Part shown: in pieces, positions 30,928-64,000 of the stretch
Layout: each line of letters opens with the position of its first letter
How positions within the stretch are numbered: the stretch's first letter is position 1
NCBI GenBank assembly: GCA_963712885.1
Contig: CAVQJT010000010.1
Span: 68,249-132,248, forward strand
Reading direction: 5' to 3'
DNA from: Calditrichia bacterium
GTDB taxonomy: Bacteria; Calditrichota; Calditrichia; JAJRVZ01
DNA: 64,000 nt
Program-made: the position numbers and the translations under genes
The notes under the pieces: model-generated
What the model saw: the letters and a program-made list of their open reading frames with translations, nothing else
What the model was told of the DNA's origin: nothing
Database searches by the model: none

Positions 30928-31923
30928 TTACATCACGTATGGCTTTATCACTCTTGCTTTTAACTTTTTAAGGGTGACGAACAGGTGGTTTAGCATTTCA
31001 TCATTTTTAAAGATCCCGATGATCGACCCCCCCGATCCGCAGAACTTAGCAGAAGCACCGCATGATCTTGCGGCTTCAACCAGGGAGAGATTCTCAGAAC
31101 TGATTGTCATGATCTTTTTTCTTATATCAAAATTTTCATTGATCAAGGCATCCAATATTTCATAACGCCGGTTGACCAGGGCATCCCTGCCTTCCTGTGC
31201 AATAGTGGCAATACGCTCCAGACTGGAGATAACTTCCTGATCTCCCTTTTCAAAACGCATACGCAGATCATTCAGGACAAAACCGGAAACTTTGCTCAGA
31301 TCGGTTCGATAGGCAATATAGAGATTAGGCAGCAAACCCGGATCTATTGGTTCATACCGGCCATGTCCCTTTTCTTCCATCATGCTGCGTCCGAAATCCA
31401 TAAACACACAACCTTCATAAACCTGGATCACCCGGTCCTGAAGTCCGGCATTTATGCCCAATTCCTCGCTTTCGGCTGCCAGTATCAGGGAAGGCAATAT
31501 TTCACGTGGGATATCAATGTGAAAGAACAGGGCTAAGGCGCGCATCGTAGCTGTTATGATCGCACTCGAGCCCGCCAGTCCAACCTGTCGCGGTATATTT
31601 GAATTATAGCGGACGGTAAAATTATTACTCTCCAGTTTAAGGCCGTTCCTGACCGTATATTCATAGAATTTTTTTATCGCTGCTTTGATCAGGCGGTCTC
31701 CGCCATAATAACTATGCAATTCGATCGAATCAATCAGTTCATGAATACTGCGGTATTGATTTTGATCCTGGACCTGAGGCTCAATTCGCAGCTCCGGTGA
31801 AGCGTACAGTGAAATTTGTGCGCCAAAATTACGCACGCTGATGGATATGGTCTTACCAAAATAACCGTCCGAAGGATTTCCAAGCAATCCGGCACGGGCA
31901 AAGGAGCGCGTTTCAATAATCAT
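30928..31923 (-). CDS. GHMP-family sugar kinase (anomeric sugar-1-kinase-like; possibly glucuronokinase/galactokinase-like).
   Basis: GHMP motif NIPRQVGLAGSSA, C-terminal GSGGS motif. N-terminal RSFARAGLLGNPSDGYFG resembles sugar-1-kinase members. Confidence 0.6.
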   Translation of the reverse strand: MIIETRSFARAGLLGNPSDGYFGKTISISVRNFGAQISLYASPELRIEPQVQDQNQYRSIHELIDSIELHSYYGGDRLIKAAIKKFYEYTVRNGLKLESNNFTVRYNSNIPRQVGLAGSSAIITATMRALALFFHIDIPREILPSLILAAESEELGINAGLQDRVIQVYEGCVFMDFGRSMMEEKGHGRYEPIDPGLLPNLYIAYRTDLSKVSGFVLNDLRMRFEKGDQEVISSLERIATIAQEGRDALVNRRYEILDALINENFDIRKKIMTISSENLSLVEAARSCGASAKFCGSGGSIIGIFKNDEMLNHLFVTLKKLKARVIKPYVM

Positions 31924-31935
31924 AGGCTGTGGTCT

Positions 31936-33201
31936 TTATTTCTCATTAGATACGACCCATAAATTAAGCCATAAACGGAAAGAATCATAGCGCATTTTAA
32001 TTGTTTCTGGATTCCGTTCTGACATCCGCATTTTATATAGCTGCAGGTAACCTGCATCCGGATATCGCATCCCGGCGAAGGCAAGACTGGATAGTTCGGC
32101 ATTGTTTTTTTCAGTAATCTGCTGAGCGGTCCATTTATCCGGATCTTCAAGATATGGAACCATATAATCCAGCGCTTTTTTTACACTGCCCCCTTTGTCG
32201 TTTGTCCATTCCCACAGATCAACACCCTGTCGTTCAAATATGCGGCAAATCAGACCAAAAGCCTCTAAATTGAACAAAGTATAATCAAAGGAGCGGGTGC
32301 GTTTTTCTTCCTCCGGAAAGCATCCGTTCCCTTCGATCTGATTCCGGATCAGAATATTTTTTGTGTGATTCTCCAATATTGGCAAAATGTCCGTACGACC
32401 TGTATATACGGCCAAAGCTGCAACCTGGGCTGTCCACCAGGTGGCATGATTATTCAAGGTTTTCTTTTCCTGCTGGCCGTTTTCACTGGTCAGCAGCCAA
32501 TCAAGATAATCGGCAAACCATTGAAGGAGTCTTTTCCGTTCATCCATTTGCCATACGCCGCTTTTTTCAAGGAGATCAAGCGCAGCAAACCATTTACTCC
32601 AGTTATGTGTATCGATTATCCCAAAACAACGACCCGGACTCCGGTTAGGGATCGCCTGGGCATAGTCCAGGTTGGGATTCATTCTGGTTGGTTTATCGAG
32701 AAACCAGATGCGGAGCAGTTCCGTTGCCCGTTCTGAATACGACGGATTATGCAGAAAATACCCGGCCATGCTGAGAACCGAAACAGCAGCGGTCATTTCG
32801 ACCAGTGACTCCTTGTGGGCCAGGAATCGGTCCGGATTGCGCAAGCCATCCCTGCGGATATAGGGTGCTCCGGGGTTACCGGGATCCGGCCACCAATAAG
32901 GAGCTTCACTATAGTAATCATGCGGATCTCCGCTAATCGCCATACCGGGCTGAAAGGTAATGCTCCATGGTCCCTTGTTCAAATAATGATCCGCAAATTC
33001 CCGTAATTCAGTCAGATAAGGCTGAATGGCATCATTATTTTCCAGAACAGAATGATCCATCACCTCCAGCTGCATTCTGGTGAAAAATAGTGTCTGTGTT
33101 CGCCCCGTTTTTGTCAGACACAAGATCATTCCAAATATCAGAATTGCCGTTTTTACAAAAATTTTTCCCATTCCGGATTTATTTATTCTCTTGATGGTCA
33201 T
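31936..33201 (-). CDS. Alginate-lyase-family protein (Pfam Alginate_lyase-like (alpha/alpha) toroid).
   Basis: Signal peptide. DYYSEAPYWWPDPGNPGAPYIRRDGLRNPD motif. Paralog of 36989..38149. Confidence 0.5.
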   Translation of the reverse strand: MTIKRINKSGMGKIFVKTAILIFGMILCLTKTGRTQTLFFTRMQLEVMDHSVLENNDAIQPYLTELREFADHYLNKGPWSITFQPGMAISGDPHDYYSEAPYWWPDPGNPGAPYIRRDGLRNPDRFLAHKESLVEMTAAVSVLSMAGYFLHNPSYSERATELLRIWFLDKPTRMNPNLDYAQAIPNRSPGRCFGIIDTHNWSKWFAALDLLEKSGVWQMDERKRLLQWFADYLDWLLTSENGQQEKKTLNNHATWWTAQVAALAVYTGRTDILPILENHTKNILIRNQIEGNGCFPEEEKRTRSFDYTLFNLEAFGLICRIFERQGVDLWEWTNDKGGSVKKALDYMVPYLEDPDKWTAQQITEKNNAELSSLAFAGMRYPDAGYLQLYKMRMSERNPETIKMRYDSFRLWLNLWVVSNEK

Positions 33202-33333
33202 TTATCCTGATCTATTCACATAACACAGAGTTGGTATATTCTTAACCCGAATCAACAATTGAACACAAATAGTTTATGTCTGGCTTAATGCCTAATTTTT
33301 CTCCGGACTGAAACCGGGTCTTCAATCTTCGGT

Positions 33334-35731
33334 TCAACAATTCAACAGAATATACCGTCCACTACCTAATTTCCGTCTATGACCACATCGCCTCCCTTTA
33401 AAATTCTGATTTCGTGCCTCAATGACCGTTTTGCCATCCGGAACCGGTTTAAATTCAATTAGGGCCCGTCCGTTGGCGGTTTCTATAATCTGGCTGCGCG
33501 TTGGCGTTCCCCAGTTGGTCAGTAGCCGGCCCGGGCCGTCCGATGCAAAATATATCCTATCCCGGTAATCTAGACACCGGTTTCCGGCCGCATCCCTTAC
33601 AGTGGCTTCAATCAGATAATTTCCCGAGATCATTTTATTTACTTTTAGTTCAATTATATCCGGTTTGCCGTGTTTTGTATAGGTATAACTCAATTCAAGT
33701 GTATCGTTCGTCACCTGCTCACTGCCTTTAAATCCCGACGCGATAAGGGTATTGACCCCTTCCCGGAACGAAAGCGTCCAGCGTAGCCCCTGAGCGGGGA
33801 AATCGGCGGGATCCCTTGTACATCTTCCGAGCAGTTCCCCATTTAACGATAATTCAACCGATTCTGCGTTGCTGTAAACACAAACCTCTCTGGGCATATT
33901 CGGGGGACCGGATCGTTCCTGCCAGGTATGCGACTCAATATAACAGAAAACCGGCTCTCCCGTCCAGAAACTCTTAAAAACATAGTACGCATCTTTTGGA
34001 TTTCCGGCGCGATCCATAACCCCTTTTTGATTAAGATACGGAATTGCATTTTCCGGGCGCAAAGGCGTACCAAAATCCTTGAATGCCCATTGTGCATTTC
34101 CGGTAAACCATTCTGCTTTCTCAGCAACGGACAGGTGCCAGTCAAACAGGTCGACAATATAATTTTCACTCCAGTCACCCTGACTGGCAATATTTTTCAC
34201 CTGAACCTGGTTGACCGCTTCTTCCCAGCCTTCGGGATTGATAAGGCCTTTTCCATCGATCGGATTTTCAACGTGGCGACCGATATGACTCGATCCGCCA
34301 TATTCGGCATGAAAAAAGCGGATATATTTGTCCTTCGCATCCCGAATGGCTTTTTCATAATTGGTATAAACCCCGGAATACCATCCTGCCCATATCGAAG
34401 GAGAAAATACATCGACAATATCAGCCCCTTCATAAAATTTCCGGATAGCCGTTACCCGCCCAGGGTCCATTTCATGCGCAAGAGTATTTAATTTGCCAAG
34501 GAAAGCGCGGAGTGAATCAACATTATCACCGCCGGGAAAATCAGGCAGCCAGTATACTTCGTTACCCAGCGACCATATGATGATGCTCGGGTGGTTGATA
34601 TTTTGACGGATCATTTCCCGCAGCACGTTCTGCGTATTTTTCTGCCAAACCGCTGGCCCGACCCCACCACGACACCATGGCAGTTCATCCCAAACCAGGA
34701 GTCCAAGTTCATCACACGCTTTATACACCTCCGGATCCTGCGGATAATGGGCCAGGCGAACAAAGTTTGCCCCCATGGCCTTGATCATTTCCATATCTCT
34801 CCGGTGGAGACTGTCCGGCATGGCGGCACCATACCCGGCGTGTTCTTCATGCCGGTGTGTACCTCGCAGCAGCAACCGTTTGCCGTTGAGATAAAACGGT
34901 CCGTGTTCACGAAATTCAAACCACCGGCAACCGAATCGTGTATTCAGGGAATCGATGGGTTTTTCTCCGGATAAAACGGTTGTCACCAAAGTATAAAGAT
35001 CGGGATGATCTGGTGACCATAACTGCGGCTTTTTTATGCTTCCCAATGAAATAGAAGTAGATTTACCAGTAACTTTGGCCGTTGAAGCGGTAATTTTCTT
35101 ACCGGCCGGATCAAGAATAACCGCTCGTATCTGTATATCATCAAGACTTTTTAATTCTGACAGTTCAATTTCAGCGATTGTTTGGGCGAGCTCATTCGAT
35201 ACGACCGGCGTCCTGATGGCAACATTTTTGATATGCACAGCCGGAACGATTTTCAGCCAGACATCCCGGGTAAGCCCACCGTAAATAAAAAAATCGGATT
35301 TTTGAGAAGGGACAATGAACGGATCATGGCCGTTGTCCACCCTGACCAGAATGGTGTTATCCTGATCATAATTGACCAGATCCGTAATATCGGTCTCGAA
35401 CCCCAGATAACCGCCGGTATGTTCGCCGGCAAGCCTCTTATTTATGTAAACGCGCGCGGATATATTTGCGCACTCGAAATAAAGGATTATCTTTTCCGGA
35501 TCCCCACTGGACCTGGGTACATAAAGACTGTTTCTGGTACCAGCCGGCATCACGACGATACCCCGGGGTGATATCGGTGGCATCCCACTGATTCCAGGTA
35601 TGTGGCAGGTTTACCTGCAGCCACTTTTTTGAAGATGTATGCAGCTGGGAAACTTCCTCAATGCCATCTTCCAGATAATACCAGCCGGCATTGAGGTTGA
35701 TCAGCCTGCGGCCGGTCCCGTCTGAGAGCAT
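33334..35731 (-). CDS. Glycoside hydrolase family 2 (beta-glucuronidase / beta-galactosidase type), frameshifted near 35440-35590. Its N-terminus is in the same frame as the upstream GH88 ORF.
   Basis: GH2 sugar-binding N-terminal domain (NAGWYY...NLPHTWN...AGWYQK; KIILYFECANISARVYINKRLAGEHTGGYLGFETDIT) and catalytic WSLGNEV motif. Confidence 0.7.
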
Positions 35732-36928
35732 ATGCCTGTTTTTCAGGTGGTTCCAATATTTATAAATGGTCTCCATAAAATAAAAATCACCGGCAGGAAA
35801 TGATTCATCAACACCCCAATTTTTGTGAAAATGATATATGGTGTGCAGAAGAAGCCCCTGCTCCGAGGAGCGCCGGCTGGATTCAAATCTGTAATTTTTG
35901 ATCAGACTCTGGGTCATTTTTATTGCCGCGGCGCGATACGTCTCGATGGACAGGCGTTCTTCGAGTTGTTCTGCCAGCAGGAACAGCCCGGAAGCGGCTA
36001 TGGCTGCGGCTGACGCATCCCGGAGGGTCTCGGGATCTGTCAGATCCAGATCCCAGAATGGTACCATATCTGGCGGAAGATGCGCCAGAAAATAATCGGC
36101 CATTCTGCGTGACGTTTCCAGAAAACGACGGTCGCCGGTATGACGGTAGGCATTGGCAAAACCGTAAATACCCCATGCCTGGCCCCGTGCCCAGGTTGAG
36201 GAGTCGCTGTATCCCTGGTGGGTGCTTTTTTTTAATACATTACCTGCTTCCGGATCGAATTGAATCACATGAAAGCTGGATCCGTTATCGCGAATACTTT
36301 GTTTCATGGCGGTAATGGCATGCCCATAAGCGATATCATAAAAAGAAAGATTACCGGTATATTTCCAGGCCCAGAACAGCAACTCGAGATTCATCATGGT
36401 GTCGATGATCATCCACCCGGCGCGGTCCTCACTGCCCAGTTTTCCCCAGGCCCGGATAAACTTTCCTTTCTGATTATAGCGTTTGGCAAGCATTTTTGCC
36501 GCCTGCACCGCACCCCGGGCAAAACGTTTATCACCGGTATGTGTATAGGCCGTTACAAGCGTCGGTATAAAAATAAATCCCATATCGTGCGTATAATCGA
36601 TTTCGGCGAATGGAAGCATATTTTCCGCATGGTGTAAGGCACGGGAACTTAGATCAGGATCTCCGGTCATATCCCAACAATACCAGAGTTCCCCGCCCAG
36701 AAAACCGGAAAGCCAGTTGACTTTGTCCCTGAATTGCCACAGCCCATCTGCCGTATATTCAGGAAACTGGTCCTTTATAACTTCATCCTTTTTTACCAGC
36801 TGATCTTTTAATCCGGAGATGAATGCCGTTTCCAAATCCTGCGAAATAGCTGATTTAAATACAATTATTACACCAAACAGAATTATTATTGAGGTAGATT
36901 TCATAAGACTCTTCTCCCCTTGTATCAT
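35732..36928 (-). CDS. Glycoside hydrolase family 88/105 (unsaturated glucuronyl / rhamnogalacturonyl hydrolase).
   Basis: TWARGQAWGIYGFANAYRHTGD signature, signal peptide, about 400-aa domain. No stop codon separates it from the GH2 N-terminus in this frame. Confidence 0.7.
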
Positions 36929-36988
36929 GCTAGTGGCGCTTTATCCAATAAACGTATCGGGGCTATGGTTTCTGATAAAATTGAATTA

Positions 36989-38149
36989 TCAATTTAACCA
37001 GATGACTGGTTGCCTTATCGGAAAATTTCGGATTACCTCATCATTTTCAGGATCCGGATCCAGGTTTTTCCATACATCAATATATTTTGATTCTTTAAAT
37101 GCTAGGCCGGCAAACAATAATGCCGGGTGCCGCACAGGCCAAAGATCAAAATACATTACATCAGGAGGATAAGGCCATTCTGACTTGTCTTTTATGAATG
37201 GAAACATAAAATCCACGGCCAATTTGATATTTCTTCCATCGTTTGTGCTGTACATCCACAGATTGTCCTTATTATCTGAGAGAATCTGGCAGACCATGCT
37301 CATGGCATCCAGATTGAATAATGAGTAATTATAAGGCTTTGTGCGGTTGAGTTCCTTCGGATACCCGCCATTCTGATCCATCTGATCGGGTATGAGAACG
37401 GTTTTGTAGAAGTTCCTGACAAATTCTTTTTGATCTTCGGCACCGACAAGATCGGCAAAAGCGGCAACCTGCATCGCCCAGCAGGTGCTATGGTTATTCC
37501 CGTTATCACGTTCGCTGATACCAAATTCATGGGTTGTCATCCATTCCAGGTAAGTATCAAACCAATCTTTTATCGTTTTCAGATCCAGCTCTTCAATGGC
37601 ATTGTATTTTTCAAGCATTTGCACAGATCTGGCGATTTCAACCAGGTGGATCGTATCAATAATGCCTATTCCTCTTCCGGTAACCCTTCCTTTGATCGCC
37701 TGTGCGTATAGCAGGTTTGGGCTCATTCGCGTATCCGGGACGATAAACCAGGCCTTCAGATGCCGGACGGCGGCCCGGGCATATTTTTGCTCACCGGTTA
37801 TGATATAGGCGGAGACAAGTGCGGGGACCTGGATACTGAATCGACGCATGACTTCTCTGTGTTTGATAAAATTATCCGGATTGGTCATTCCGTCTTTACG
37901 GATATAGGGTCCATCCGGATTCTCAGGATCCGGCCACCAATAATCGCCTTCAGAGTAAAAATCATGGATGCCGCCCGAACTTCGGCTCGCCGCAAATGCG
38001 GTGATGGTAACAGGTTCTTCATCAAGAAAGCGTTCAGCCATTGATAATACGCGTTCGCGTTCTATCGCATTAATGTCAACTGTCCCGGATGCATTGCATG
38101 ACAACAGGAACACAATAGAAACATAAAGCATTACTTTAAATATTAACAT
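36989..38149 (-). CDS. Alginate-lyase-family protein, paralog of 31936..33201.
   Basis: DFYSEGDYWWPDPENPDGPYIRKDGMTNPD. Lipoprotein-like signal (LLSC). Confidence 0.5.
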   Translation of the reverse strand: MLIFKVMLYVSIVFLLSCNASGTVDINAIERERVLSMAERFLDEEPVTITAFAASRSSGGIHDFYSEGDYWWPDPENPDGPYIRKDGMTNPDNFIKHREVMRRFSIQVPALVSAYIITGEQKYARAAVRHLKAWFIVPDTRMSPNLLYAQAIKGRVTGRGIGIIDTIHLVEIARSVQMLEKYNAIEELDLKTIKDWFDTYLEWMTTHEFGISERDNGNNHSTCWAMQVAAFADLVGAEDQKEFVRNFYKTVLIPDQMDQNGGYPKELNRTKPYNYSLFNLDAMSMVCQILSDNKDNLWMYSTNDGRNIKLAVDFMFPFIKDKSEWPYPPDVMYFDLWPVRHPALLFAGLAFKESKYIDVWKNLDPDPENDEVIRNFPIRQPVIWLN

Positions 38150-38165
38150 TATCTCATGCCTTGCT

Positions 38166-38895
38166 TTAATTATTATTGCCCATAGCATATATTATGCCGC
38201 CAAATAGATGATTCAGGAAAAGCGTGTCCTGATAACTTTCTGGTGTGTGGCCTCCGGCCGTATACCAGGCACGCCCCTTGCCTACATCGTGATACCAGCT
38301 GAGAGGGTGATCCGCACCATTCCCCCCGCCTGTATATGAAGATTCATCAAGTGTGATCAATACCTTTATTCCCGGATCGAGCGGGGTTCTGAAATTATAC
38401 CACTCGTCTGTCCGTTCCCAGATATCCGGTAAATGTCTTGTCGACGGATGGTTTTTATCCCGTATAATCAGTCTGGCCGGCTGGACTTTTGGGTGATCCC
38501 TAAAATAGGTCCCCAGGAGTTTGCCATACCATTCCCAATCATATTCCGTATCACTGGCACCATGGAATCCCGGCGAAACCACCGCCATTTTCAATATATG
38601 TCCGCAGCGCCTGCTTCCCACCCGGACCAAGGACATTGCCACTGGTGTTCAGAAATACGACCGCGGCATAATTTTTCAGGATCTCATCGGTAAAAATCAG
38701 TGAATCTGCCATCGAATTCACAAGAATATTCTGTTCTTTGCCAAATTTTTTAATGGCGATCAGAGCCTGCGGAATACTCTTGTGGATATATTCATTGGTT
38801 TTAGTAAATACGAGGATGGATTGTGGTGTCTGGTCTTTTGTGCAACTCATTATCCAGATCGGAAAGAAAATAAGCATTAAAGATCGGCGCGTCAT
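38166..38895 (-). CDS. ThuA-like (trehalose-utilisation, class-I glutamine-amidotransferase-like fold) secreted protein, frameshifted near 38600.
   Basis: ILVFTKT..AVVFLNTSG..ENGGGFAGIH in ORF 38551..38895; ITLDESSYTGG...WYTAGGH in ORF 38166..38642. Confidence 0.5.
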
Positions 38896-40800
38896 CTTAC
38901 GAATAACATTTTTATTGAATGGGATAACTTTCCGTCAACCGTCATCGTACAAAAATACATACCTGAAGAAGATATAACGCCCTGCCCGTTGCGTCCGTCC
39001 CATCCAACCCGTTTTGTACCGGCCGGCTCACGGCCGTTGGACAGGGTGATGATCATTTCGCCGGATGTATTGTAAATTTGCAGGACAACATGTGCGGGTT
39101 TGCCGATACTAAATGTTATGATCGTGGATGGATTGAACGGATTCGGATAATTTTGTCTGAGGACATAAGATCGGGGTGCCTCAGGCACGCTCTCCCCATC
39201 GATCGAGGCAGCAGGCCCGAGTCGATCTTCCAGTTGTGCCAGATAAAGCGATCTGGGCTCCAGACCTGCCTGATTTGTACCTTCGATGTAGCCTTCCGGC
39301 ACCGGAAAAGGCGCCGGTGGGCTGATTCCGGTTATATCACCTGAGCAGCCGATGGCATAATTTTGTCCGGTCGGCGGTTTCTGGATGGTCAGGTTGCCTG
39401 CTGCGACATCACAATTCCAGGCCACACCATGTACCAGCGCCCAGCCGTGGCTTGTCCCGTAATGTCCCCGGTTGTATAATCCCAAGAGACGAGGATTATA
39501 GCCCGGACGGGGTCCATCCAGTTCAACGACATTGTCATATAAAAGTGCCTGACTCCATTGGCGATGCCCCTCGCTGCTGGCATATGCTCCTGATGAGGTG
39601 CAGTCCAGAAATACACAACCGGAAGTCCAGCTGGTGCCGTTTGACATATAATGATGCCTTCCATTGGTGGCATGGCAATCCCTGACCAGAATCTGCTGTG
39701 ACGCATTATACAGACTGGAAATTGTACATGTTGCCACCGTCGATTGGTGCAACCGGATCCAGTGCCTGGCAATTCTGAATGGTAATGCGGGTGGCGGTAT
39801 TCGTTCTGAAACCGGACAGTCCAAAATGCAGTACGGTGCAATTGCGTACCCAGGCATCCTCGATCTGAAAGAGATCGATGGCGTTCCAGGCATGATTCTG
39901 ATCAACACCGCCGGCGGTTACAATATCAATCCGCAAATTTTCAATACCGATGTGATTCCGGATTCCCAGACGTCCGTAACGATAAATAAAGGATTGTGAC
40001 AGTGAACGAATCAAATGGTTGTATACGGGAACATCTATGGTGATGGTATTTCCCTCGATGGCAGTAATATACCGGTTGAACACGACAGGCTGGCTGTTTA
40101 TGGCCCAGGGCAGATCCACACCGGGTTCTGCAGCCGGGAGATACCAGAATGTACCTCCGGTATCAACCGCAGATAACCAGGCTGCTGTGCAGGGATGATA
40201 AATTATAATATTGTCACCAACATTATAACCTGATGCATCCGCAACCTCAAAGGTTTTTTCACCAATCAATACCGTATCAGAAATAATGTTAACGTTCGAA
40301 CCGGCATCACCGTCGGACCATTTGGTTTGTGCCCCGCCGCCGGCGACTAAAACCGTCCTTTTTGTTGGCGAATTACCGGTCGCTTTCAGGATCGTATTTG
40401 TTAATGGGTTGTCACCATCTCCCTCACCTCTCAGAACAACACCATCGAAGCCAATTTTAATTGTACCGTTGATTTCATACTCCCCTGCTTTAAGCAATAG
40501 TGCGCCATGAAACCCGTTGCTGTCCGGGGGCATCATGGCCACTTCAAACAGGGCATTTTGAATCAGGGTCGTATTGTCGCCTGAGACGGGTTCAAGGATC
40601 TTAACAACGGGTACGTCCGGAATCCTTTCGGCTGAATTTTTATACCCGGCATAACTGAAATCAGGGATGCGGTTGCCGCTGGAATCGGCAACGTAAACCA
40701 GTTTCTCATCATTGCCGCGATACACGATCTTCGACTCCCAGGCAGACAGATTTGTGCCAAAGACCAGTACCGCGAGGCAAAATAGTATTACATTTTTCAT
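38892..40800 (-). CDS. Right-handed beta-helix (pectate-lyase-fold) secreted protein with a T9SS C-terminal domain; frameshifted near 39700-39900.
   Basis: Signal peptide and beta-helix repeats (NCTVLHFGLSGF..) in ORF 39706..40800. C-terminal ORF 38892..39908 ends with LRQNYPNPFNPSTIITFSI... Confidence 0.6.
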
Positions 40801-40804
40801 TCAA

Positions 40805-44037: not shown

Positions 44038-45490
44038 TTATTTTACAAACATCATCTTTTTGACCAGCGTATTGCCGGCAGTTTGAAGCCGATAAAAATA
44101 TACACCCGTAGCCGCATTTGTGGGCTGCCAGTTGACCGCGTGGGTACCGGCATTTCTGAAACCGTTGGCCAGCTGCGCAACACGGGATCCGGTAATATCA
44201 TAAATTTCCAGGATCACATCTCCCGGTTCAGCCAAGGAGAACGCTATCGTTGTTGAAGGATTGAATGGGTTCGGATAGTTCTGGTACAAGACTAAATTCA
44301 TTTGGAGTCAGGTTATCGGTATCAGATCCAATGCTGACCATTGGATCCACCCAGCGCAGATCTCCCAGAGGCCCACCGTCATGCCCTTTTCCGTAAGCCG
44401 GGGATCCTGGAGTCAGTGTATAATCCATATTGACGGCATCGGCATAAAGCGGATCGAATCCATAAATCGTGGTTGTATCGACTGTCCCTCCTTTTACACA
44501 ACTGATACGGCCTGATTCCGGAGAAGGTACTCCAAAAATCATATTTATGGTATCTACGTGACTTATGAATGAACCAACACCCTGCAATTGAACAACATAA
44601 TCCGCCCGCTCGGCACGGGTGAGTTTGGGCAGGCGGCTGTTGGTGACAAGAACATCCCTGAAGATTGCTCCGGCATTATTCTTAATATAAGCCATACGGG
44701 TTCCGGAATTATTTACCGTGAGATTCTCGATCAATACATAAGCGTCTTCCGTTTCGGTATTCGTATCGGCATAAAACCGGATACATTCGGAAGAGATATT
44801 TGTGAACGTACAATTACGAACAATCAAACTATCCACGACCCTTTCGACGGCATACTTTTCTGTTTCACTCATACGTATCGCTTCATCACCTATGTCATAA
44901 AAAGTGCAATTTTCCATGCGAACAGTACCCGCTTTTAATATGGGTTCGCCGGATCCGGGGGCAAGAAAATACAGGGCATGGCCTTCGGCCTCTCCTTCCT
45001 TATCACCGTTATCATAAAAATTGCGGAATACACAATTCTTGACAATGATATTCAAACCTTCCTTCGCGTAGACCCGCGGTACCTGAGAATCAGGTCCATG
45101 ACCTAAACGAATACCGTGTTTGAGGCCGCGTGTGGCTGCCGGGTGCATGCCATCGAAAATGATACCTTCAAAGGTCACATCATCATGACAGCGAAACATC
45201 TCAATAGTTCCGGAATCGGCATCACTATGTGTAAGGATTGGCATTTCGGCCAGCCCCGGCTTCGCCATGATAACGACCGGCTTTTTGATCTGAAAATAGA
45301 CCGTATCGGATGTTGTATAGACACCGCCTGAAGTGGAAAGCAATAAGGTATCGATATTGTTACTGGCTGCATAATCCAGGGCCAGTTTGAAGTCATATAT
45401 GTCCTCCACTTCAATTTTGCTGGCAAGGACCGTCTGTCCGATAAAAGCAAACATTAAGATAATCAGTAACGGTAACAAAATTCTCTGCAT
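44038..45490 (-). CDS. Beta-helix T9SS cargo protein, frameshifted just before the C-terminal domain near 44230-44300. Family unassigned.
   Basis: Signal peptide, NCTF/NCVF beta-helix repeats. C-terminal motif GFDPLYADAVNMDYTLTPGSPAYGKGHDGGPLGDLRW is shared with the giant protein at 60031..64000. Sorting domain is in ORF 44038..44301. Confidence 0.6.
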
Positions 45491-55892: not shown

Positions 55893-55919
55893 GGGCCTAT
55901 CCCCTCCCTAATGCGATTA
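55893..55919. other. Perfect GC-rich hairpin (CCCCTCCCTAAT gcg ATTAGGGAGGGG) in an AT-rich intergenic region. REP-like or terminator-like.
   Basis: 12-bp perfect stem and 3-nt loop read directly. No clear U-tract. Confidence 0.5.
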
Positions 55920-56189: not shown

Positions 56190-57954
56190 TCATTTTAATA
56201 TAAAAATTTTCATAACCGCTGAGGCATACGCAGATTTCACACTCAATAAATAAATCCCGGTCGATAATTTATCCGAACCAATTGAGAACAGATGTGAACC
56301 AACGGAATATCCCCTAAAAATCTTCCTGAAGGCCTGCCTTCCCAGAACATCATAAATGATGATCTCGATATCCGATGCCGCTTTTAGATCGACATGAACC
56401 GAGGCAGTGGAATTGAACGGGTTTGGTGTAATACGCATCGAAAGATCGAGCTGCATTTCGCCTTTCAATACCCTTTTCCGGAATAGCATCTATGATATCT
56501 CTGGCAAAGGGTCCGACATCTGCTTCACTAAGAATTGTGCGGATCACGGGATCATCGCTATACTCATCTGCACCGATATCGGTCGGCAGGCTTCTCTTCT
56601 GCCCTTCAATATCATCCGAAACATAATCAAAATCACCGGATGCGGCATCGATTGCCGGACTTTTCGCATCAGGATGCCAGAATCCATCTGTTTTGATCAT
56701 CAATGGATCACTTATCAGAATCGAAGCAGAATCAACACCAATACCTACGGTACCCGCATTGCCGGGATAAGCCAGATTTGTCTGCCATATCATGTTGACC
56801 GGGTCGGTAAATGTGTTTATAAGGGTAGTCGAATCGGAAACGATAAGATTGTGTGCCATGATGACATCACGGGGTGGTTTGGTGTATGCGCCGTTATTCG
56901 TATATCCGATCTCGATCGGATGGTCGTTTTGTATCAGTGTGTTGTGGACAATTTCAGCCCGATTGATACGAAAATGGCGGCTTAAATTGGTACCACTGTC
57001 ATAATCACCATTGGTAAGGGTCAACCCCGCATCCCATTTTGTACCGGTAAGACGGGTAAAATAGTTGTTGTAAATTTTATGATCATCTCCGTATAGACGC
57101 ACGCCTCCTGTTCCGGTCTTTTCCTCGCCCAGGAAAAAATTGCTTTCGACCACCGATCCGTTTCCATGACGCAAACAGAGCGAACCCTGACATCGTCTGA
57201 AAGTATTATATCTGATGGTATCGGCGCAGGTTTTTACGGAAATGATTTCCGGGTCACCATCACAATTTTCAAAAAGATTGTATTCAACAACCGTAAATCC
57301 ATTGGACATTGACATTTCACTCCAACCGACCCTGATCGCCTCCATTCCGTTCTCTATCCTTGGGCCCGTATTCCGTAAATGGTTATGGTCAATACGATCG
57401 TATTTTGATGACTGGTAAGTTGGTTCAGGTGAGCCATCGATCGTAATAAAATTTCCGGGTTGATGTTTCTCTTCAAAGAGATTATGATCGATCCGGTTAA
57501 ATGCCGATATGGCATTAGGATCATTCCAAATGCCCCCGATCACGATCCATTTTGATGATTCAGACTCAGTTAAGCGAAATGTATTCCGTGTCACCCGAAT
57601 ATTATCGCATGCTTCCATTTTGATGGCCGAATATGATGCTGTCGTGATCAAAAACCCCTGAATAATCACATGGCTGGCCTGTTTGAGGCCAAAATAGGTG
57701 TCACCAGCCAGTTCGACTTTACCAATATCTGCGGCGGTAATTACAACCGGTTGCTCGGTGGTGGCCTTAACCGTGATGGTCATGTTTCCTGGATCATATA
57801 CACCCGCGGCGACTTCGATACGATCACCCGGCAGAGCCATCTGGACAGCAGATTTTAATTGCGAAGCGGTCGAAACACGAATCAGGCGCAAATACGGCCA
57901 ATCTTCACCGAGCAGAATAGAACCATATAGCAGGATTGATAGAATTGTTTTCAA
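56190..57954 (-). CDS. PL6-family polysaccharide lyase with a T9SS C-terminal domain; frameshifted at the catalytic-domain/sorting-domain junction near 56350-56490.
   Basis: EYNLFENCDGDPEIISVKTCADTIRYNTFRRCQGSLCLRHGN..GGVRLYGDDHKIYNNYF..TNGDYDSGTNLSRHF. Sorting domain in ORF 56190..56489. Confidence 0.7.
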
Positions 57955-58271
57955 TATTCTAGATCAAAGATTGAGTAGACTCGAAAAAGCCCCGATTACG
58001 AAGTTATCATCCCGAACTCGTTTCGGGATCAACTGTTTTTACCGGACTTACAGATGCTGAAATGAATTCAGCATGACAATATTGCACTATTCAGAGTGCA
58101 TTCAAGATTAAAGATTTACTGTTTACAGAGCAAAATAGCGTAAGAAAGCGACCGGGGGCAACGCGCAGGTTTCTTATATTACGCCTGCTCTTAAATTCCT
58201 AATTTCTAATTTCTCATTCCTCATTTCGCATCCCTGCCAACTGCTTGCCCGCCGGAGGCGTGGCCAACTGC

Positions 58272-59297
58272 CTACCGCTGAACCCTGCCTGAAATATCTC
58301 CTTTTACAATCGAAAGCACTTCATCTTCACTGACCAGATTCATATCACCGGGAATAGTCTGCTTTAGTGCCGATGCCGCCACGGCAAACTCCAGCGCCCT
58401 TTGTTTGTCCCAGCCCTCCAGCAAGCCGTGAATCAGGCCGGCACCAAATGAATCGCCCCCACCGACACGGTCCACAAGATGTATTGGATACTTGCGGCTT
58501 AAAAAGTATTCATTTCCATCATATAACATGGCTGACCAGTTATTATCTGAAGCGGAGAGACTTTCTCTCAAAGTAATGGCAACATCTGAGATCTCAGCCA
58601 GATCTTTCACCTTTGCAGCCACTTCCTGAAAGTGATCGGTCGAAAGGTGACCGCTTGTTACATCCGTCGTATCGGCTTTGATGCCAAATACATCGGCAGC
58701 ATCCTCTTCGTTGGCGATTACAACGTCAATATACTGAATGATCTCACTCATGGTCCGTTTTGCCTGGTCGCGGCTCCACAGTTTTTTACGATAATTCAAA
58801 TCACAACTGATCCGGAGGTCCGATTTTTTTGCGATCCGCACCGCGTCAAGACAGGTTGCTGCGCTGCCTTCAGATAAGGCAGGGGTGATTCCCGTGATAT
58901 GGAACCACGCCGCATTTTCGAAGATCTTCGGCCAATCAAACATCTCAGGTTGAATTTCTGCCATCGCCGAACCGGAGCGGTCATAAGTCACTTTCGAAGG
59001 TCTGATCGATGCGCCATGTTCCAGAAAATAGATTCCGATCCGTTCCCCGCCCCTGATAATAAAAGCGGTATCAACCCCATATCCGGCAATCGTTTTAATA
59101 GCCGCATCACCCAGCGGATTATCCGGAAGACGGGTAACAAAAGAAACATCATTCCCATACTGCGACAGCGAAACGGCAACATTCGCTTCCCCGCCCCCAT
59201 ATGTTGCCTGAAACGTATTGGTTTGCAAAATACGTTCGTAATTGAACGGTGCCAGGCGTAACATGATTTCGCCAAAAGTCACTATTCTTTTTTTCAT
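58272..59297 (-). CDS. kdgK: 2-dehydro-3-deoxygluconokinase (PfkB family).
   Basis: PfkB motifs (GGGEANVA; DRVGGGDSFGAG). KdgK-like length. Adjacent to eda. Confidence 0.8.
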   Translation of the reverse strand: MKKRIVTFGEIMLRLAPFNYERILQTNTFQATYGGGEANVAVSLSQYGNDVSFVTRLPDNPLGDAAIKTIAGYGVDTAFIIRGGERIGIYFLEHGASIRPSKVTYDRSGSAMAEIQPEMFDWPKIFENAAWFHITGITPALSEGSAATCLDAVRIAKKSDLRISCDLNYRKKLWSRDQAKRTMSEIIQYIDVVIANEEDAADVFGIKADTTDVTSGHLSTDHFQEVAAKVKDLAEISDVAITLRESLSASDNNWSAMLYDGNEYFLSRKYPIHLVDRVGGGDSFGAGLIHGLLEGWDKQRALEFAVAASALKQTIPGDMNLVSEDEVLSIVKGDISGRVQR

Positions 59298-59312
59298 TTT
59301 TGCTTCAATAAC

Positions 59313-59972
59313 CTATTTTGATCTACCCTCTTTTACGGTTGTCACAAATTCAGAAGCCCGTATTGTAAGCTGCTCCCATTCTGATTCCGCAATCATTTTC
59401 TTATCGAGCAATGCGGTTCCGACACCAAGGCAGCAGGCACCGGCCCTGATAAACTCTGAAGCGTTTTCCAAGGATACACCCCCTGTTGGTGTCAGTCTGA
59501 CCTGCGGCAGAGGTCCATGAATATCTTTAAAATACTTTGGACCGAGCGCGGTCGCGGGAAATACTTTTACCACGTCGGCACCGTTTTCCCATGCGCACAG
59601 TATCTCTGTGGGTGTAAATGCGCCTGAAATCATTAACCGGTCATACCGATGCACAAGCCGGATCATGTCAGGATTGAGAACCGGACTTACCACGAATGTG
59701 GCGCCGGCCTGAATAACCATCCTGGCTGTTTCCGTATCCAGAACAGTTCCTGCACCGATCAGAAATTCACCATTATATCGATGCGATAATTGACTGATGA
59801 TCTCAGGTGCATTGGGGGTGGTCATGGTTATTTCTAATGCATGAATGCCGCCTTTGGTGAGCGCACCGATGATGCCCTCCAGTTTTGAAATATCTGCCAG
59901 ACGGATTACCGCAATGATGCCGCATTCCTCAATTTTTGCAAGGACTTCCGTTCTGTTCATGGCACGATTCAA
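59313..59972 (-). CDS. eda: 2-dehydro-3-deoxyphosphogluconate / 4-hydroxy-2-oxoglutarate aldolase.
   Basis: GIIAVIR..ALEITMTTP..GAGTVL...FVVSP...KVFPA Eda pattern; 219 aa. Confidence 0.85.
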   Translation of the reverse strand: MNRAMNRTEVLAKIEECGIIAVIRLADISKLEGIIGALTKGGIHALEITMTTPNAPEIISQLSHRYNGEFLIGAGTVLDTETARMVIQAGATFVVSPVLNPDMIRLVHRYDRLMISGAFTPTEILCAWENGADVVKVFPATALGPKYFKDIHGPLPQVRLTPTGGVSLENASEFIRAGACCLGVGTALLDKKMIAESEWEQLTIRASEFVTTVKEGRSK

Positions 59973-60030
59973 CTCCGATTTCGAATGAATAAAACGTTGC
60001 CGGCCGGATGACCGGCAACGTTGAAAGCGG

Positions 60031-63000
60031 TTATTTGATCATCATCATCTTCTTAATGTCACTGAATTCTTCTGATTGAATGCGATAAAAGTATAATCCG
60101 GTAGCAAGTTCCGGATGATTAAAGACCAGTTTATGTTTACCGGCCGGCATCTGTTGATCGACGAGTGTAAATATCTCGCGGCCAAGAATGTCATAAACTT
60201 TAATCGTCGTTTTGCCTGCTTTTTTCAGATCAAATCGAATCGTCGTCTGTGGGTTGAACGGATTCGGATAGTTCTGATACAGGGTATATTCGGTTGGGAT
60301 CCCATTGAGGTCTTCGATAGCATCTACCATCTGGAATTTTACACCAACCGTTTTATTTCCATCCATGGTAATGGTCTGCGGGTTGACAGCACCGGTCAGA
60401 TCTCCCGTCCATTCAACGAACTCATAGGAGGTATCCGGTACAGACTGTCAGGGTAACTACCTGGTCCGGATCAAAGGTTTTACCTACAGGAGCCGGGTCA
60501 AAAACAACTTTTCCTTCACCTTCAATGGTTACCGCCACCAGAAAATGCGTTGGTGTGTTGGTTGCCCATCTCAGATCGCCTGCCGCTTCACCATCGTCGC
60601 CAATATCGTAAGCATGGGAGGCCGATAAAAGCGTATAATTCCTGTCCCCCGGTGCTTCGAACAGCGGATCGAATTCCCAGATCAGAGTAGTATCCAGTGT
60701 CGCACCGACTTCCAGGTCAATATTCGTACTGGCATTATTGATAACCAGATGCGAGGCTGATGATGCTTCACCGTACAATCTGATCACATCGTTATGACGT
60801 GCAGACAGGAACATCTGATTTGTAATAATGCAGTTCTTTATCTCAGCATTCAGTACACCTTCGGGATAAAGGACGCGGTAATTCTGATTCCAACTCGCAG
60901 AGTCAATCGTGCAGTGATTGATCATGAGCACCATGTCATTATTATCACGCACTCTCACAGCTTCCCGACCTGATCGGATAAAGGTTGTGTTTTCAATTCT
61001 GGCATACTTAACCGTGTTGGGATCTCTCATATAGATGCCTTCGTTTTTGCATTCCCTGAACATGCTGTTGGTAATGATCAGTGTATCCACAAATGACCCG
61101 GCATAGATCTTTACCCATACCTCGCCTGAATTGTAGATATAACAATCGTTAATCCTGATCTCTGTTTTTACCGTATCGTCATCTGTCCTTAAAGCATACT
61201 TGGCATCATACATTTCAATACCATCCAGTGAGAGACTGGTACCACCGACTCTGATCTGGAAAATACCATCTGAATAACCCAGATCCGGATTACCTTCAAT
61301 TTTTGGCCGTTCCGCAAGCCCTTCTTTCGCCATTATGGACAACGGAAAATCAACATCGATGTTCTCATGTGCCTTATATACGCCACCCGAGGTGGTCAAT
61401 ACAATATGTTTTACCTGACTGTTGTTGCGGGCAAAATCAACAGCCTCAGCCAGGCTTTGGGTGGTATCGATCTCAAGTATGCCGCCGGGGACAGAGATCT
61501 CACTGAAGGTAACCGTTACATTCACATCACTGTCCATTGTCACGATCGCCGTGTCATTCGCACTGGTAATATCACCAGACCAGCCGTCAAATTTAAAACC
61601 ACCAAGCGGCATGGCAACCATCGTTACTACAGTGGAAGAATCGTAACTTTCATAGTAGGGATAGGGTTCAGGATCGTAGCTGACCTCTCCTTTACCTACG
61701 ACCGTAAGATTGATCTTAAATTGTGTTTCAATCGGTGTAAAATTGGCGGTAACGCTTAGGTTTGATGTTACCGATATGGTATCCGGATTATTTGATCCGG
61801 TAAGATCACCTGTCCACTCGGTGAATACCATCGCAGACGTATCAGACACGGCGGTCAGGGTGACATCGGTACCATCATAATAGGAAAATATACCGGCCGC
61901 GCTGTCGGCCTGAGCTGGCGCCGGTGCCAGATCCACATGACCGATCCCGATTGCCGAGACCGTCAGGGTAAACAGATCCTTCAAGGGGACAAAGAAAACT
62001 GTAACGGTCAGATCGGAGTTCATGGTGACCGTTCTTACCTCTGTATCCGGCGGAAAAGCAGCCGGTTCCCACTTGGATACCTTTGAATCAGCCCCAGGTT
62101 TTGCGGTCAGGGTAACAACCGTTCCCGGATCATAATAGGGGCCGGCCGGACTTGCCTCTACAGTTCCGTTTCCGTCCGTAAGAAGCGTTAACAAAAATTG
62201 ATTCGGATCTGTTTCCCAGCGCAGATCGCCCATCGCTTTGCCGTCATCCGCAGCACCACGGGCCGGGGATGTCAGGGCAAGACGATAATCACCACTTGAC
62301 GGATCCTTGTACAGCGGATCTTCGTCGATCATACCTCCACCGATTGAAGACGATTCACCTGTATCGACCGGTCTTACATTAAAGGTATCGGTGTAGGAAA
62401 TTGTGGATGTGCCGTAAAGATCAACGGATTCCGTATTCGTACCCATTTGATTTGACATGATGCAATTCGTAATGGTGGCATTGGTGACATACAGGTCGCC
62501 CCCGTCCATACGGATTACACGATCGTTCTCAATGGTTGCAGTTGAATCCATGGTAACATGATTGATAATTACTTCTGGATTATAGCCAACCGCAGCACTA
62601 CCGAACTGTATCGCCTCACGTCCGGTATTGGTAATGGTAACATTTTCAAACAGTACGTAGTTCATTGCAGGGCCGTCACCGCCAGTATCATAGAAATTAA
62701 ATCCTTCCCGTAAAGCATTTCTGGCAATTGAGTTTGTTACAATACATGTATCGACAACAGTTTTCAAATAGCCCCGTACAAAGTTTTCGGTATAATCGTG
62801 AAAATAACAGTCATCGACCTTCAGAAACATGTAGGTGGAATCACCGGCAATCAGACGGACAGCCTGTTTGGAATAGGGAGTTCCGCTGCCATCGCCGCTA
62901 CCATCAAACTCCAGGCCGATCAGGGTTAGACTACCGCCGGAGAGCACCTCGAAATTACGGGTGTTGGAACTACTAGTTGGCCGAAGATTCCGGATAATTG

Positions 63001-64000
63001 GTCTCTGGGTCAGCCCTTCCCGCGCTCGGATTGTAAGAACTTTATCAATTTCAATCTTATCGAACTCTTGCGTGTATACGTAAACACCACCATTGTCCAT
63101 CAATTCAAGAATATCACCACTCTCGGCTGCCTGTACGGCATCATAAAGCGTATTATCCCCGGCATACACCTTATGAACGGTTGGCCCCTGAGCGTACGGA
63201 TCCCAGCGCAAATCGCCCATGGCTTTGGCGTCATCCGCCATGCCAAGTGCCGGTGATCCTTCCTGAAGTGTATAGTCAAGATTAGCCGGATCTGTATACA
63301 ACGGATCTCCACTGATCATACCGCTGCCGATGGCTGCAGATTCGTTTAAATCGACAGGCCTTACATGAAAGGTATCACTATAGGAAACCGTGGAGGTACC
63401 GTACAACTGAAGCGAATACTGGTAAGCACCCATCTGATTGGATATAATGCAATTTTTTATGGTTGCATTTGCAACAGCTATGGTGCCGGGGTTTAACCTG
63501 ATCACCCGATAATCACCCCCCTGGGAGGTGGAATCCATGGTGACATGGTTGATAATCACTTCCGGGTTATATCCTACATCAGCACTGCCGATCTTTATCG
63601 CTTCACGGCCGACATTTGTAATCGTAACGTTCTCAAACAGGGCGTAATTCAAAGCCGGCCCACCACTGTTGGTGTCATACAGCATCCAGCCTTCCCGTAC
63701 AGAGCCGGTACTGACCGAGTTTTGAATGATAAAAGTATCGACGACGGTTTTGGTATAGCCTCTGAGGAAATTTTCGGTATAATCATGAAAATAGCAGTCG
63801 AATATTTTCAGGACCATTGAGGTGGAGTCGCCGGCAGTGAGACGAATTGCCTGTTTGGAATATGGGGTCCCGCTGCCATCGCCGCTACCGTCGAATTCAA
63901 GACCGATTAGGGTCAGAGTGCCCCCGGATAGCACTTCGAAATTACGTGTGTTGGTACTCGAAGTCGGACGAAGACTACGGATAACCGGTTTCTGTGCCAA
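60031..64000 (-). CDS. Giant multi-module beta-helix T9SS cargo protein; 1192 aa are visible and the N-terminus lies beyond the window edge. It has three beta-helix modules plus Ig-like spacers. A frameshift near 60430 separates the body from its sorting domain.
   Basis: ORF 60422..64000 is open to the window edge. Modules 1 and 2 are about 70% identical at protein level. The C-terminal domain in ORF 60031..60366 is LYQNYPNPFNPQTTIRFDL.... Confidence 0.65.

Follow-up and report, generated by a model that had tools for sequence, protein, structure and literature searches.

A putative polyuronate utilisation island with a SusD-less import cassette in a Calditrichia bacterium

Background

Which polysaccharides could be used by a bacterium that keeps uronate-type lyases, glycosidases and an outer-membrane receptor together in one gene cluster without SusD, and how would such polymers be captured and taken up? 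This question is raised by a stretch of 64,000 nucleotides from a Calditrichia bacterium (assembly GCA_963712885.1, contig CAVQJT010000010.1, positions 68,249 to 132,248), referred to here as the window. It contains an island of approximately 33 kb; between 30.9 kb and the end of the window, the minus strand encodes all substantial open reading frames (ORFs). From its predicted proteins we read this island as a three-tier polyuronate utilisation island, resembling a polysaccharide utilisation locus (PUL), of an uncultured bacterium of the FCB group (Fibrobacterota, Chlorobiota, Bacteroidota) whose nearest relatives are metagenome-assembled genomes (MAGs) labelled Caldithrix/Calditrichota and KSB1, and we would give this reading a probability of about 0.7 (0.72).

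Results and discussion

An island of predicted surface, import and periplasmic functions

The reading is carried by the protein families recovered along the island and by their arrangement. Since the same genes recur in the same order in relatives, their clustering is not due to chance. A set of secreted proteins with the C-terminal sorting domain (CTD) of type IX secretion systems (T9SS) would form the first tier: judging from the CTDs, two PL6 endo-lyases (PL6long and PL6short), the beta-helix proteins BH466 and Giant, and two proteins with no Pfam family (BH640 and P750) would be exported by the T9SS, bind the polymer and cut it at the cell surface. Oligomers would then be imported through a SusC-like TonB-dependent receptor (TBDR) that lacks a SusD partner and whose fixed partners, as the strict gene order suggests, would be P750, a PorV/PorQ-family barrel and a FadL-like barrel. 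Within the periplasm, to which signal peptides or lipoboxes without a CTD point, two PL38-like lyases and one distantly PL12-like lyase would shorten the oligomers, GH88 would take off the unsaturated end residue and GH2 would then trim saturated beta-glucuronate. Finally, KdgK and Eda would channel the resulting 2-keto-3-deoxygluconate (KDG) to central metabolism. The intermediate steps would be those of KduI/KduD or a reductase for 4-deoxy-L-erythro-5-hexoseulose uronate (DEH), and of UxaC/UxuA; one relative encodes intermediate steps and an inner-membrane transporter approximately 7 kb from its island.

Domains were assigned with Pfam and NCBIfam profiles, and structural relatives were found by sequence search against the PDB. 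The features are as follows.

29989-30627, minus strand: NTP_transferase (PF00483, 77 bits), 212 aa, probably truncated or frameshifted
30928-31923, minus strand: GHMP kinase of the glucuronokinase orthologue group (Pfam GHMP_kinases_N/C)
31936-33201, minus strand: PL38-like lyase A (PF05426 Alginate_lyase, 279 bits)
33334-36928, minus strand: GH88-GH2 fusion (GH88 domain in ORF 35438-36928, GH2 domain in ORF 33334-35583; frameshift near 35535)
36989-38188, minus strand: PL38-like lyase B (PF05426, 276 bits)
38166-38895, minus strand: ThuA-like protein (Pfam ThuA in two ORFs; frameshift near 38570)
38892-40800, minus strand: BH640, a secreted protein of approximately 640 aa with no Pfam family (ORFs 39706-40800 and 38892-39908, the latter with the CTD; frameshift near 39711)
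41011-43713, minus strand: PL6long, 900 aa (Chondroitinas_B 343 bits, DUF4957/DUF5123, Por_Secre_tail 39.5 bits)
44041-45490, minus strand: BH466, beta-helix/DUF5123 (body in ORF 44228-45490, CTD in another frame at 44041-44307; frameshift near 44280)
45614-47122, minus strand: FadL/Toluene_X-like outer-membrane beta-barrel (PF03349, 45 bits)
47189-48238, minus strand: PorV/PorQ-family outer-membrane barrel (NCBIfam PorV_fam 180 bits, cut-off 90)
48246-50492, minus strand: P750, 748 aa, no Pfam family (beta-supersandwich, Fn3 and a long atypical T9SS CTD)
50526-53368, minus strand: TBDR (PF00593 79 bits in ORF 50526-53084, N-terminal CarboxypepD_reg; frameshift near 53100)
53511-55790, minus strand: heparinase II/III-fold lyase, distantly PL12-like (Hepar_II_III_N 91 bits, Hepar_II_III_C 40 bits)
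56193-57954, minus strand: PL6short, single-domain PL6 (Chondroitinas_B 169 bits in ORF 56350-57954, CTD in another frame at 56193-56489; frameshift near 56415)
58272-59297, minus strand: KdgK, KDG kinase-like PfkB protein, cytoplasmic (PF00294, 138 bits)
59313-59972, minus strand: Eda, KDPG/KHG aldolase (PF01081, 153 bits)
60034-64000, minus strand: Giant, more than 1300 aa, N-terminus beyond the window (three DUF5123, three Flg_new_2; CTD in ORF 60031-60366, 49 bits; frameshift near 60437)

A first-pass annotation, made from the letters alone, had proposed a uronate-polysaccharide degradation island here, and the Pfam families at these positions together with the conserved gene order support it. 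The two PL6 and two Alginate_lyase proteins, the heparinase II/III-like protein, ThuA, the TBDR, KdgK and Eda that it had named were all recovered by Pfam, and its statement that nearly all genes lie on the minus strand can be sharpened, as all genes between 30.9 and 64 kb do. Its gene list was essentially right, except that GH88 and GH2, counted there as two genes, form one fused gene and that four genes (the PorV-family barrel, the FadL-like barrel, P750 and the GHMP kinase) had been omitted. Two of its three beta-helix proteins do carry DUF5123 (44228-45490 and 60422-64000), and the third, at 38892-40800, is unassigned. The absence of sulfatases also held, as no sulfatase domain was found among the window ORFs scanned with Pfam. 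The remainder of the window, from 1 to 30.6 kb, is of housekeeping character (LeuRS, PdxS/T, a carboxyltransferase, Sir2, an ABC ATPase and TPR proteins).

A conserved, probable import cassette without SusD

T9SS-tagged carbohydrate-active enzymes (CAZymes) have already been described outside Bacteroidota (PMC3534657, PMC5596340), and the SusD-less import cassette is the more distinctive feature of the island. In all, 43 related loci were compared, namely those obtained in the scan together with L001, L002 and L052, each of which has a P750 orthologue. The order TBDR, P750, PorV-like barrel, FadL-like barrel, BH466 is kept wherever the contig allows and holds in approximately 33 of them, with the TBDR present in 42, the PorV-like and the FadL-like barrel in 38 each, BH466 in 33 and PL6long in 27. 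These loci stem from MAGs labelled Caldithrix/Calditrichota, KSB1, Ignavibacteria/Melioribacteraceae and Marinimicrobia/Fidelibacterota. Variable accessory genes in the relatives include the heparinase-fold lyase, KdgK/Eda, PL38-like lyases, BH640, GH2, short-chain dehydrogenases/reductases (SDRs), KduI and transporters of the tripartite ATP-independent periplasmic (TRAP) or major facilitator type, and the commonest extra gene beside the cassette is a GntR/FCD regulator, found in 11 loci (L004, L005, L007, L009, L011, L013, L038-L041 and L049).

The receptor has the SusC-like trait of an N-terminal CarboxypepD_reg extension in a cluster with CAZymes. In the window, its signal peptide and a segment resembling CarboxypepD_reg are read in another frame; L001 and L052 have an intact receptor of 949-951 aa that includes CarboxypepD_reg. 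No SusD Pfam domain was found in any island ORF. Instead, the TBDR gene is always followed by P750, and the PorV-like gene starts 7 bp downstream of the latter. This PorV-like barrel also matches PorQ (75 bits) and PorV (64 bits), both below the NCBIfam cut-offs, and the FadL-like barrel shows weak N-terminal matches to BamG and PorV_fam.

P750 is 58-92% identical across MAGs labelled Caldithrix/Calditrichia, KSB1, Melioribacteraceae/Ignavibacteriales and Marinimicrobia/Fidelibacterota. The family is small: 1.84 billion representatives yielded 49 clusters at E<=1e-30, and approximately 470 more distant relatives mostly share just the Fn3 and CTD half. An AlphaFold model (pLDDT 68, pTM 0.71) consists of a beta-sandwich, an Fn3 domain and the CTD and does not have the helical SusD fold. 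A role of P750 as a housekeeping component of the T9SS was considered and rejected, since the family is small, its gene is nearly always followed by BH466, and PL6long is present in 27 of the 43 loci.

In some genomes two P750 paralogues exist (L036/L026 in one KSB1 MAG, L037/L027 in one Marinimicrobia MAG), with 50-56% compared to approximately 60% identity to the P750 of the window, and the L036 paralogue lies in a second cassette with its own TBDR and barrels, so that the system has been duplicated and diversified within genomes. In L002 (Fidelibacterota CP070638.1) the cassette adjoins a flagellar export operon, PL6, KdgK and Eda are absent within 10 kb, and only the transport and binding core is retained.

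The C-terminus of P750 matches that of PorZ (NCBIfam, 30 bits). PorZ and PorU retain their CTD once they are secreted (PMC11285876), and in the PorZ-PorQ and PorU-PorV pairs of the T9SS attachment complex of Porphyromonas gingivalis a protein with a long atypical CTD is likewise encoded beside a PorV/PorQ-family barrel. Unlike PorZ, however, P750 sits in a nutrient-uptake locus and shows no similarity outside the CTD. We only tentatively raise the possibility that the cassette is a distinct T9SS-dependent machine for glycan capture and import, which in FCB phyla other than Bacteroidota might replace the SusC/SusD lipoprotein 'utilisome' and in which P750, held by the PorQ-like barrel via an uncleaved PorZ-like CTD, might act as substrate-binding lid or feeder of the TBDR. 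The literature searched contained no description of such a cassette and, for Calditrichota, Marinimicrobia and Ignavibacteria, gave just general statements on CTD-bearing CAZymes; the fixed combination of TBDR, P750, PorV-like barrel, FadL-like barrel and PL6 C-terminal-type domain thus appears to be undescribed.

The PL6 lyases and their free-standing C-terminal domains

In PL6long a catalytic PL6 beta-helix (Chondroitinas_B, PF14592) is followed by another domain of beta-helix type (DUF4957/DUF5123) and by a T9SS CTD. Its N-terminal domain matches the alginate lyases 7o7a/7o84 (Pedsa0632) at 4e-118, as well as AlyGC, BcAlyPL6 and BoPL6. A catalytic core of 170 residues is near-identical to solved alginate lyases, the active-site region being approximately 70% identical to one of them, and in the alignment to AlyGC both the Lys of the EIISNKS motif and the Arg that is mutated in the R241A entry are conserved. 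PL6short is more divergent and, as judged by eye, keeps the catalytic Lys and Arg; its L001 orthologue (572 aa, with CTD) matches the alginate lyases 8bwk and 5gkd at approximately 1e-45, and L052, a relative with 92% identity, lacks the gene. Enzymes of PL6_1 are endo-alginate lyases (PMC5966431).

With its two beta-helix domains PL6long resembles AlyGC, BcAlyPL6 and BoPL6. It differs from these in its origin from a Calditrichota/KSB1-like genome, in the added T9SS CTD and in the occurrence of its C-terminal domain also in free-standing form, in BH466 and Giant. Two-domain PL6 proteins have been reported only from Pseudomonadota and Bacteroidota (PMC12992946), and their occurrence outside these two phyla appears to be undescribed in the literature searched.

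BH466 aligns to the C-terminal beta-helix domain of PL6long with an hhalign probability of 99.9% (E 1e-33) and by this measure is a free-standing copy of the PL6 C-terminal domain with a T9SS CTD; it is intact with the CTD in L001, L052 and L053. Giant contains at least three such beta-helix modules (DUF5123), three InlB B-repeat-like domains and a T9SS CTD, and its orthologues are intact at 1402-1420 aa with the CTD. Two tandem modules of Giant are near-identical (..RPTSS.NTRNFEVLSGG.LTLIGLEFDGSGDGSGTPYSKQA..), indicating a recent internal duplication of the unit resembling the PL6 C-terminal domain. Since BoPL6 has a C-terminal domain able to act in trans on its catalytic one (PMC12992946), a role as modules for binding or specificity is possible for BH466 and Giant.

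PL38-like lyases, a heparinase-fold protein and BH640

The PL38-like lyases A and B are paralogues with 37% identity. A matches 3nfv at 1.6e-63 and 8bdq/9fi1 at approximately 1e-53, compared with merely 3e-6 for the PL5 enzyme AlgL (4ozv), and B matches 3nfv at 8e-55 and 8bdq at 1.4e-46. Both paralogues are thus tentatively placed beside 8bdq, the structure of BoPL38, in PL38, a family with an (alpha/alpha)7-barrel. The PL38 family holds alginate lyases and polyglucuronate lyases (PMC11890756).

For the heparinase-fold protein the sole sequence matches in the PDB are to heparinase III (8e-13 to 2e-10, 43-51 bits), and its NCBIfam matches to HepC (56-74 bits) are far under the cut-offs of 600-700. 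BH640 follows PL6long in those loci in which it occurs, and its orthologues (L001, L011, L013, L040, L050, L052 and L053) show 79% mean column identity, numerous His, Asp and Arg residues being invariant. By sequence it matched nothing in the PDB, and a profile search gave only the 'putative pectin lyase' 7chu (5e-4, 22 bits, in the N-terminal cap); NCBIfam added a faint BT3328-family match at 1e-4. A relationship to the PL6 domains was ruled out, as hhalign shows no relation to either of them. BH640 is a candidate for a new lyase or hydrolase family.

A GH88-GH2 fusion between the PL38-like genes

GH88 and GH2, previously taken as separate genes, belong to one protein of approximately 1180 aa: the GH88 frame runs stop-free into the GH2 N-terminus, as mapped at the junction, and a search with the reconstructed fusion retrieved intact GH88-GH2 fusions of approximately 1180 aa in at least 120 protein clusters, the MAGs being labelled, where named, Fidelibacterota, Melioribacteraceae, Ignavibacteriales, Marinimicrobia and Caldisericaceae. 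The GH88 part (PF07470, 54 bits) matches the unsaturated glucuronyl hydrolases (UGLs) 2zzr (1.6e-69), 3anj and 1vd5 over the whole domain, at 1e-65 to 1e-69. The GH2 part resembles beta-glucuronidase in its sequence, with matches to 6d1p (1.6e-174) and to 6d7j, deposited as 'Beta-Glucuronidase' (2e-166); its best NCBIfam match is the beta-glucuronidase LacZ4 (352 bits, below the cut-off of 950). An N-x-K motif (N-Q-K) and both catalytic Glu motifs (NE, EYG) are invariant in 120 of 120 fusions, and by comparison with UidA from E. coli N-x-K is probably the carboxylate-binding motif.

Both halves are thus close to solved enzymes, GH88 UGLs and gut Bacteroidota beta-glucuronidases (6d1p, 6d7j), and the N-x-K motif is present. 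In contrast to these, both predicted activities are here in one polypeptide that is flanked by PL38-like lyases, and such a widespread fusion between PL38 paralogues appears to be undescribed in the literature searched.

The order PL38, GH88-GH2, PL38 is common to the window, L049, L050 and L053. In L049 the module is accompanied by KduI, UxaC, UxuA, SDRs, TRAP DctPQM, DUF4861, another PL6 and GntR, a gene set predicted to be a complete route for unsaturated and saturated glucuronate. As neither a hexosaminidase nor a sulfatase is present in the window, the residue exposed after the action of GH88 is probably again a uronate, which would explain the fused beta-glucuronidase and would favour glucuronan-type oligomers.

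The end pathway and the boundary of the island

KdgK matches best, in NCBIfam, the KHG/KDPG aldolase-kinase fusion (543 bits) and the KDG/KDGal kinase (249 bits), both below the equivalog cut-offs, and the presence of a KDG kinase and KDPG aldolase end pathway is predicted from these two genes. It had been considered that the pair might belong to a separate hexuronate operon. KdgK and Eda are, however, adjacent in L001, L010, L050 and L052, and they stay inside the island even when relocated: in L001/L052 the pair sits between Giant and the lyases, and in L050 it comes after the PL38 module.

The GHMP kinase starts 12 bp downstream of PL38-like lyase A, and its homologues with 65-84% identity are named 'glucuronokinase' in the annotation of the Joint Genome Institute (JGI). 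It is always followed by NTP_transferase, and this pair is found in the syntenic L053 as well as in unrelated contexts, with 65-70% identity across MAGs and genomes labelled KSB1, Cyclobacteriaceae and Chitinispirillaceae. Because of these unrelated neighbourhoods we regard the two genes as a separate unit that abuts the island, and the glucuronokinase was rejected as an island gene. In zebrafish, one enzyme of UDP-glucuronate (UDP-GlcA) salvage unites both activities (PMC3938481), and the bacterial pair may be an uncharacterised UDP-GlcA salvage pair.

Sorting signals separate two tiers

CTDs were recognised by TIGR04183 or PF18962 at the extreme C-terminus and by a local hidden Markov model (HMM) built from the CTDs of the window. 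Six island proteins carry them: PL6long, PL6short, BH466, BH640, Giant and P750. With the local HMM five of the island CTDs are clear. They are clear in PL6long (39.5 bits), the CTD ORF of Giant (49 bits), the BH466 orthologues (36-45 bits) and the BH640 orthologue (30 bits), and borderline in PL6short (local HMM E 2e-11; L001 orthologue 22.8 bits against the cut-off of 23 bits) and P750 (TIGR04183 24 bits against a cut-off of 23; weak in the local HMM). In BH466, PL6short and Giant the body of the protein and its CTD are read in different frames, and a frameshift splits BH640 as well. Two more T9SS CTD proteins are encoded on the plus strand at the window start (1-577 and 1117-3669); in one the CTD is split by a frameshift, and the other has 850 aa without a further recognisable domain.

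No CTD was found on the PL38-like lyases A and B, GH88-GH2, the heparinase-fold protein or ThuA, all of which have signal peptides. Lipobox-like signals are present in PL38-like lyase B (FLLSC), in ThuA (IMSC) and possibly in PL38-like lyase A, GH88-GH2 and the heparinase-fold protein have plain Sec signal peptides, and no signal peptide was seen in KdgK, Eda and the GHMP kinase. The first-pass annotation had described the island enzymes as T9SS cargo rather than lipoproteins. Six CTD proteins do exist, but just two of them, both PL6, are recognisable enzymes, the other four being accessory or binding proteins, and the exclusion of lipoprotein signals fails for PL38-like lyase B and ThuA. Since the CTD is present on the presumed surface proteins and absent from the PL38-like and PL12-like lyases, GH88-GH2 and ThuA, the T9SS tag marks the surface tier only, and most recognisable island enzymes are, by prediction, periplasmic proteins of the Sec or lipoprotein type.

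It has been suggested that the T9SS may occur in other FCB phyla (PMC11285876). Tagged CAZymes of Melioribacter roseus, SAR406/Marinimicrobia and cellulolytic Bacteroidota show the same Por/T9SS sorting domain on polysaccharide degraders (PMC3534657, PMC5596340, PMC5831590). In contrast to these, the CTD proteins described here are organised with a dedicated TBDR and PorV/FadL-family barrels in a fixed five-gene cassette.

Which substrates, and which alternatives?

The substrates are likely to be 1,4-linked polyuronates, as predicted from the enzyme families. Alginate is indicated by the PL6 core and glucuronan, or a polymer rich in glucuronate, by the PL38/GH88-glucuronidase module; a dual-substrate island or a single heteropolymer may be involved, both of which are compatible with the PL6 and the PL38/GH88 evidence. 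Among the substrates suggested earlier alginate and glucuronan are thus favoured, whereas ulvan and glycosaminoglycans are unlikely; ulvan was rejected because there are no sulfatases, rhamnosidases or ulvan-lyase-like proteins. The concern that the lyases might fall into families of unrelated specificity did not materialise, as all lyase families present act on uronates, and the earlier remark that GH88 is unusual for alginate gains weight from its fusion to a beta-glucuronidase-like GH2, its PL38-like flanks and the context in L049.

A plain alginate locus, in which PL6, the PL38-like lyases and the heparinase-fold protein as an exo-oligoalginate lyase yield DEH and then KDG while GH88-GH2 is a passenger or has another target, appears doubtful to us, even though several observations fit it. 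The core of PL6long hardly differs from solved alginate lyases, the nearest PDB chains to the PL38-like proteins were deposited as alginate lyases, PL6 and PL38 occur together in the alginate PUL of Bacteroides ovatus CP926 (PMC11381880), and KdgK/Eda as well as the GntR regulators of the relatives are typical of alginate loci. However, the two PL38-like genes enclose GH88-GH2 in the window as well as in L049, L050 and L053, L049 ties the fusion to KduI, UxaC and UxuA, which are dispensable for alginate catabolism, and no PL7, PL15, PL17 or KdgF was found in the window or among the recurrent neighbours of the 43 loci.

Conversely, glucuronan or a glucuronate-rich exopolysaccharide could be the only substrate, if PL6 acted not on alginate but on beta-1,4-glucuronan, the C2 epimer of mannuronan. 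The GH88-glucuronidase fusion, the glucuronan lyases included in PL38 (PMC11890756), the KduI, UxaC and UxuA neighbours in L049, the adjoining glucuronokinase-like gene and the lack of hexosaminidases and sulfatases, by which the residue after GH88 is probably a uronate, all speak for this. The active-site region of PL6long is, however, approximately 70% identical to that of an alginate lyase, and the glucuronokinase/NTP-transferase pair is a separate unit that is also found in unrelated contexts. Moreover, PL6 enzymes are not known to act on glucuronan, and overall this explanation is unlikely.

The island might also be decaying, with real frameshifts in a strain that no longer uses the substrate. 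At least seven of its genes are frameshifted (BH640, TBDR, BH466, PL6short, Giant, ThuA and GH88-GH2), and none of the frameshift sites examined falls in a long homopolymer run. On the other hand, when the intact orthologues of L001, a syntenic locus, were aligned to the window by tblastn, all alignments were colinear with one frame switch each (from frame -2 to -3 in BH640), and the frames outside each single switch are open and well conserved, with 50-65% identity to the orthologues. The two ORFs of ThuA cover profile positions 2-85 and 84-209, and the gene is intact with 245-247 aa in L001 and L053. Relatives with 73-92% identity have all genes intact; the close relatives L052 and L053 carry every split gene intact, and L053 keeps the gene order of the window through the neighbouring housekeeping genes (P750 approximately 87%, the fusion 73% identical). 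Housekeeping genes are also broken in the window, as a MalK-like ABC ATPase (26863-27967) is split into two overlapping ORFs and the NTP transferase has 212 aa compared to 291-293 aa in relatives, both being intact in L053. This suggests indel errors throughout the assembly. Since genes outside the island are affected as well, the split genes stem most probably from frameshift errors of the assembly, which leaves decay quite improbable.

A glycosaminoglycan or heparosan-type locus, as in the heparin/heparan and chondroitin PULs of Bacteroides, is suggested by the PL12-like lyase with its heparinase II/III fold, with heparinase III as sole solved relative by sequence, and by a GH88 part closest to glycosaminoglycan-active UGLs, but is very improbable and was rejected, since there are no sulfatases, GH20/GH89-type hexosaminidases or PL8, similarity to PL12 is weak (51 bits, and in NCBIfam well under the cut-off) and PL6 and PL38 dominate the island.

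Several points weigh against the three-tier polyuronate island itself. Neither a DEH reductase, KduI/KduD, UxaC/UxuA/UxuB, an inner-membrane transporter nor a regulator was found in the window, and of the T9SS machinery the PorV-family barrel alone is present there, with no core component observed. The evidence for alginate and that for glucuronate come from different genes rather than converging on a single substrate. In addition, the PL12-like protein and BH640 lack a confident family assignment, the confidence of the P750 model is moderate (pLDDT 68), the putative partnership of P750 with the TBDR and the barrels is read from gene order, and the position of the frameshifts away from long homopolymers has already been mentioned. 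The three-tier polyuronate utilisation island is nevertheless the reading that we prefer.

Comparison with alginate loci of Bacteroidota

The alginate PUL of B. ovatus CP926 holds PL6, PL17 and PL38 (PMC11381880). With this PUL and with the alginate utilisation loci of marine flavobacteria the island shares an endo-lyase of the PL6_1 type and a PL38-like lyase (PMC5966431, PMC11381880) as well as a TonB-dependent importer, KdgK/Eda and, in its relatives, a GntR-type regulator. There are, however, clear differences. SusD is missing, and the TBDR is instead grouped with a beta-sandwich protein that bears a CTD and with two barrels of the PorV/FadL family; the surface proteins are T9SS cargo and not lipoproteins; PL7 and PL17 are absent, a GH88-glucuronidase fusion is embedded, and the host lies outside Bacteroidota.

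Conclusion

In sediments, digesters and the dark ocean, Calditrichota, KSB1, Ignavibacteria and Marinimicrobia abound as uncultured degraders, and their capture and import of polysaccharides without SusD is poorly understood. The island offers a conserved module for this, consisting of a TBDR, a putative T9SS-displayed binding protein and PorV/FadL-family barrels, and its secretion signals cleanly divide a surface tier from a periplasmic tier. In addition, it provides enzyme candidates, namely the GH88-beta-glucuronidase fusion with its PL38 paralogues, possibly a glucuronan pathway, the free-standing PL6 C-terminal domains and BH640.

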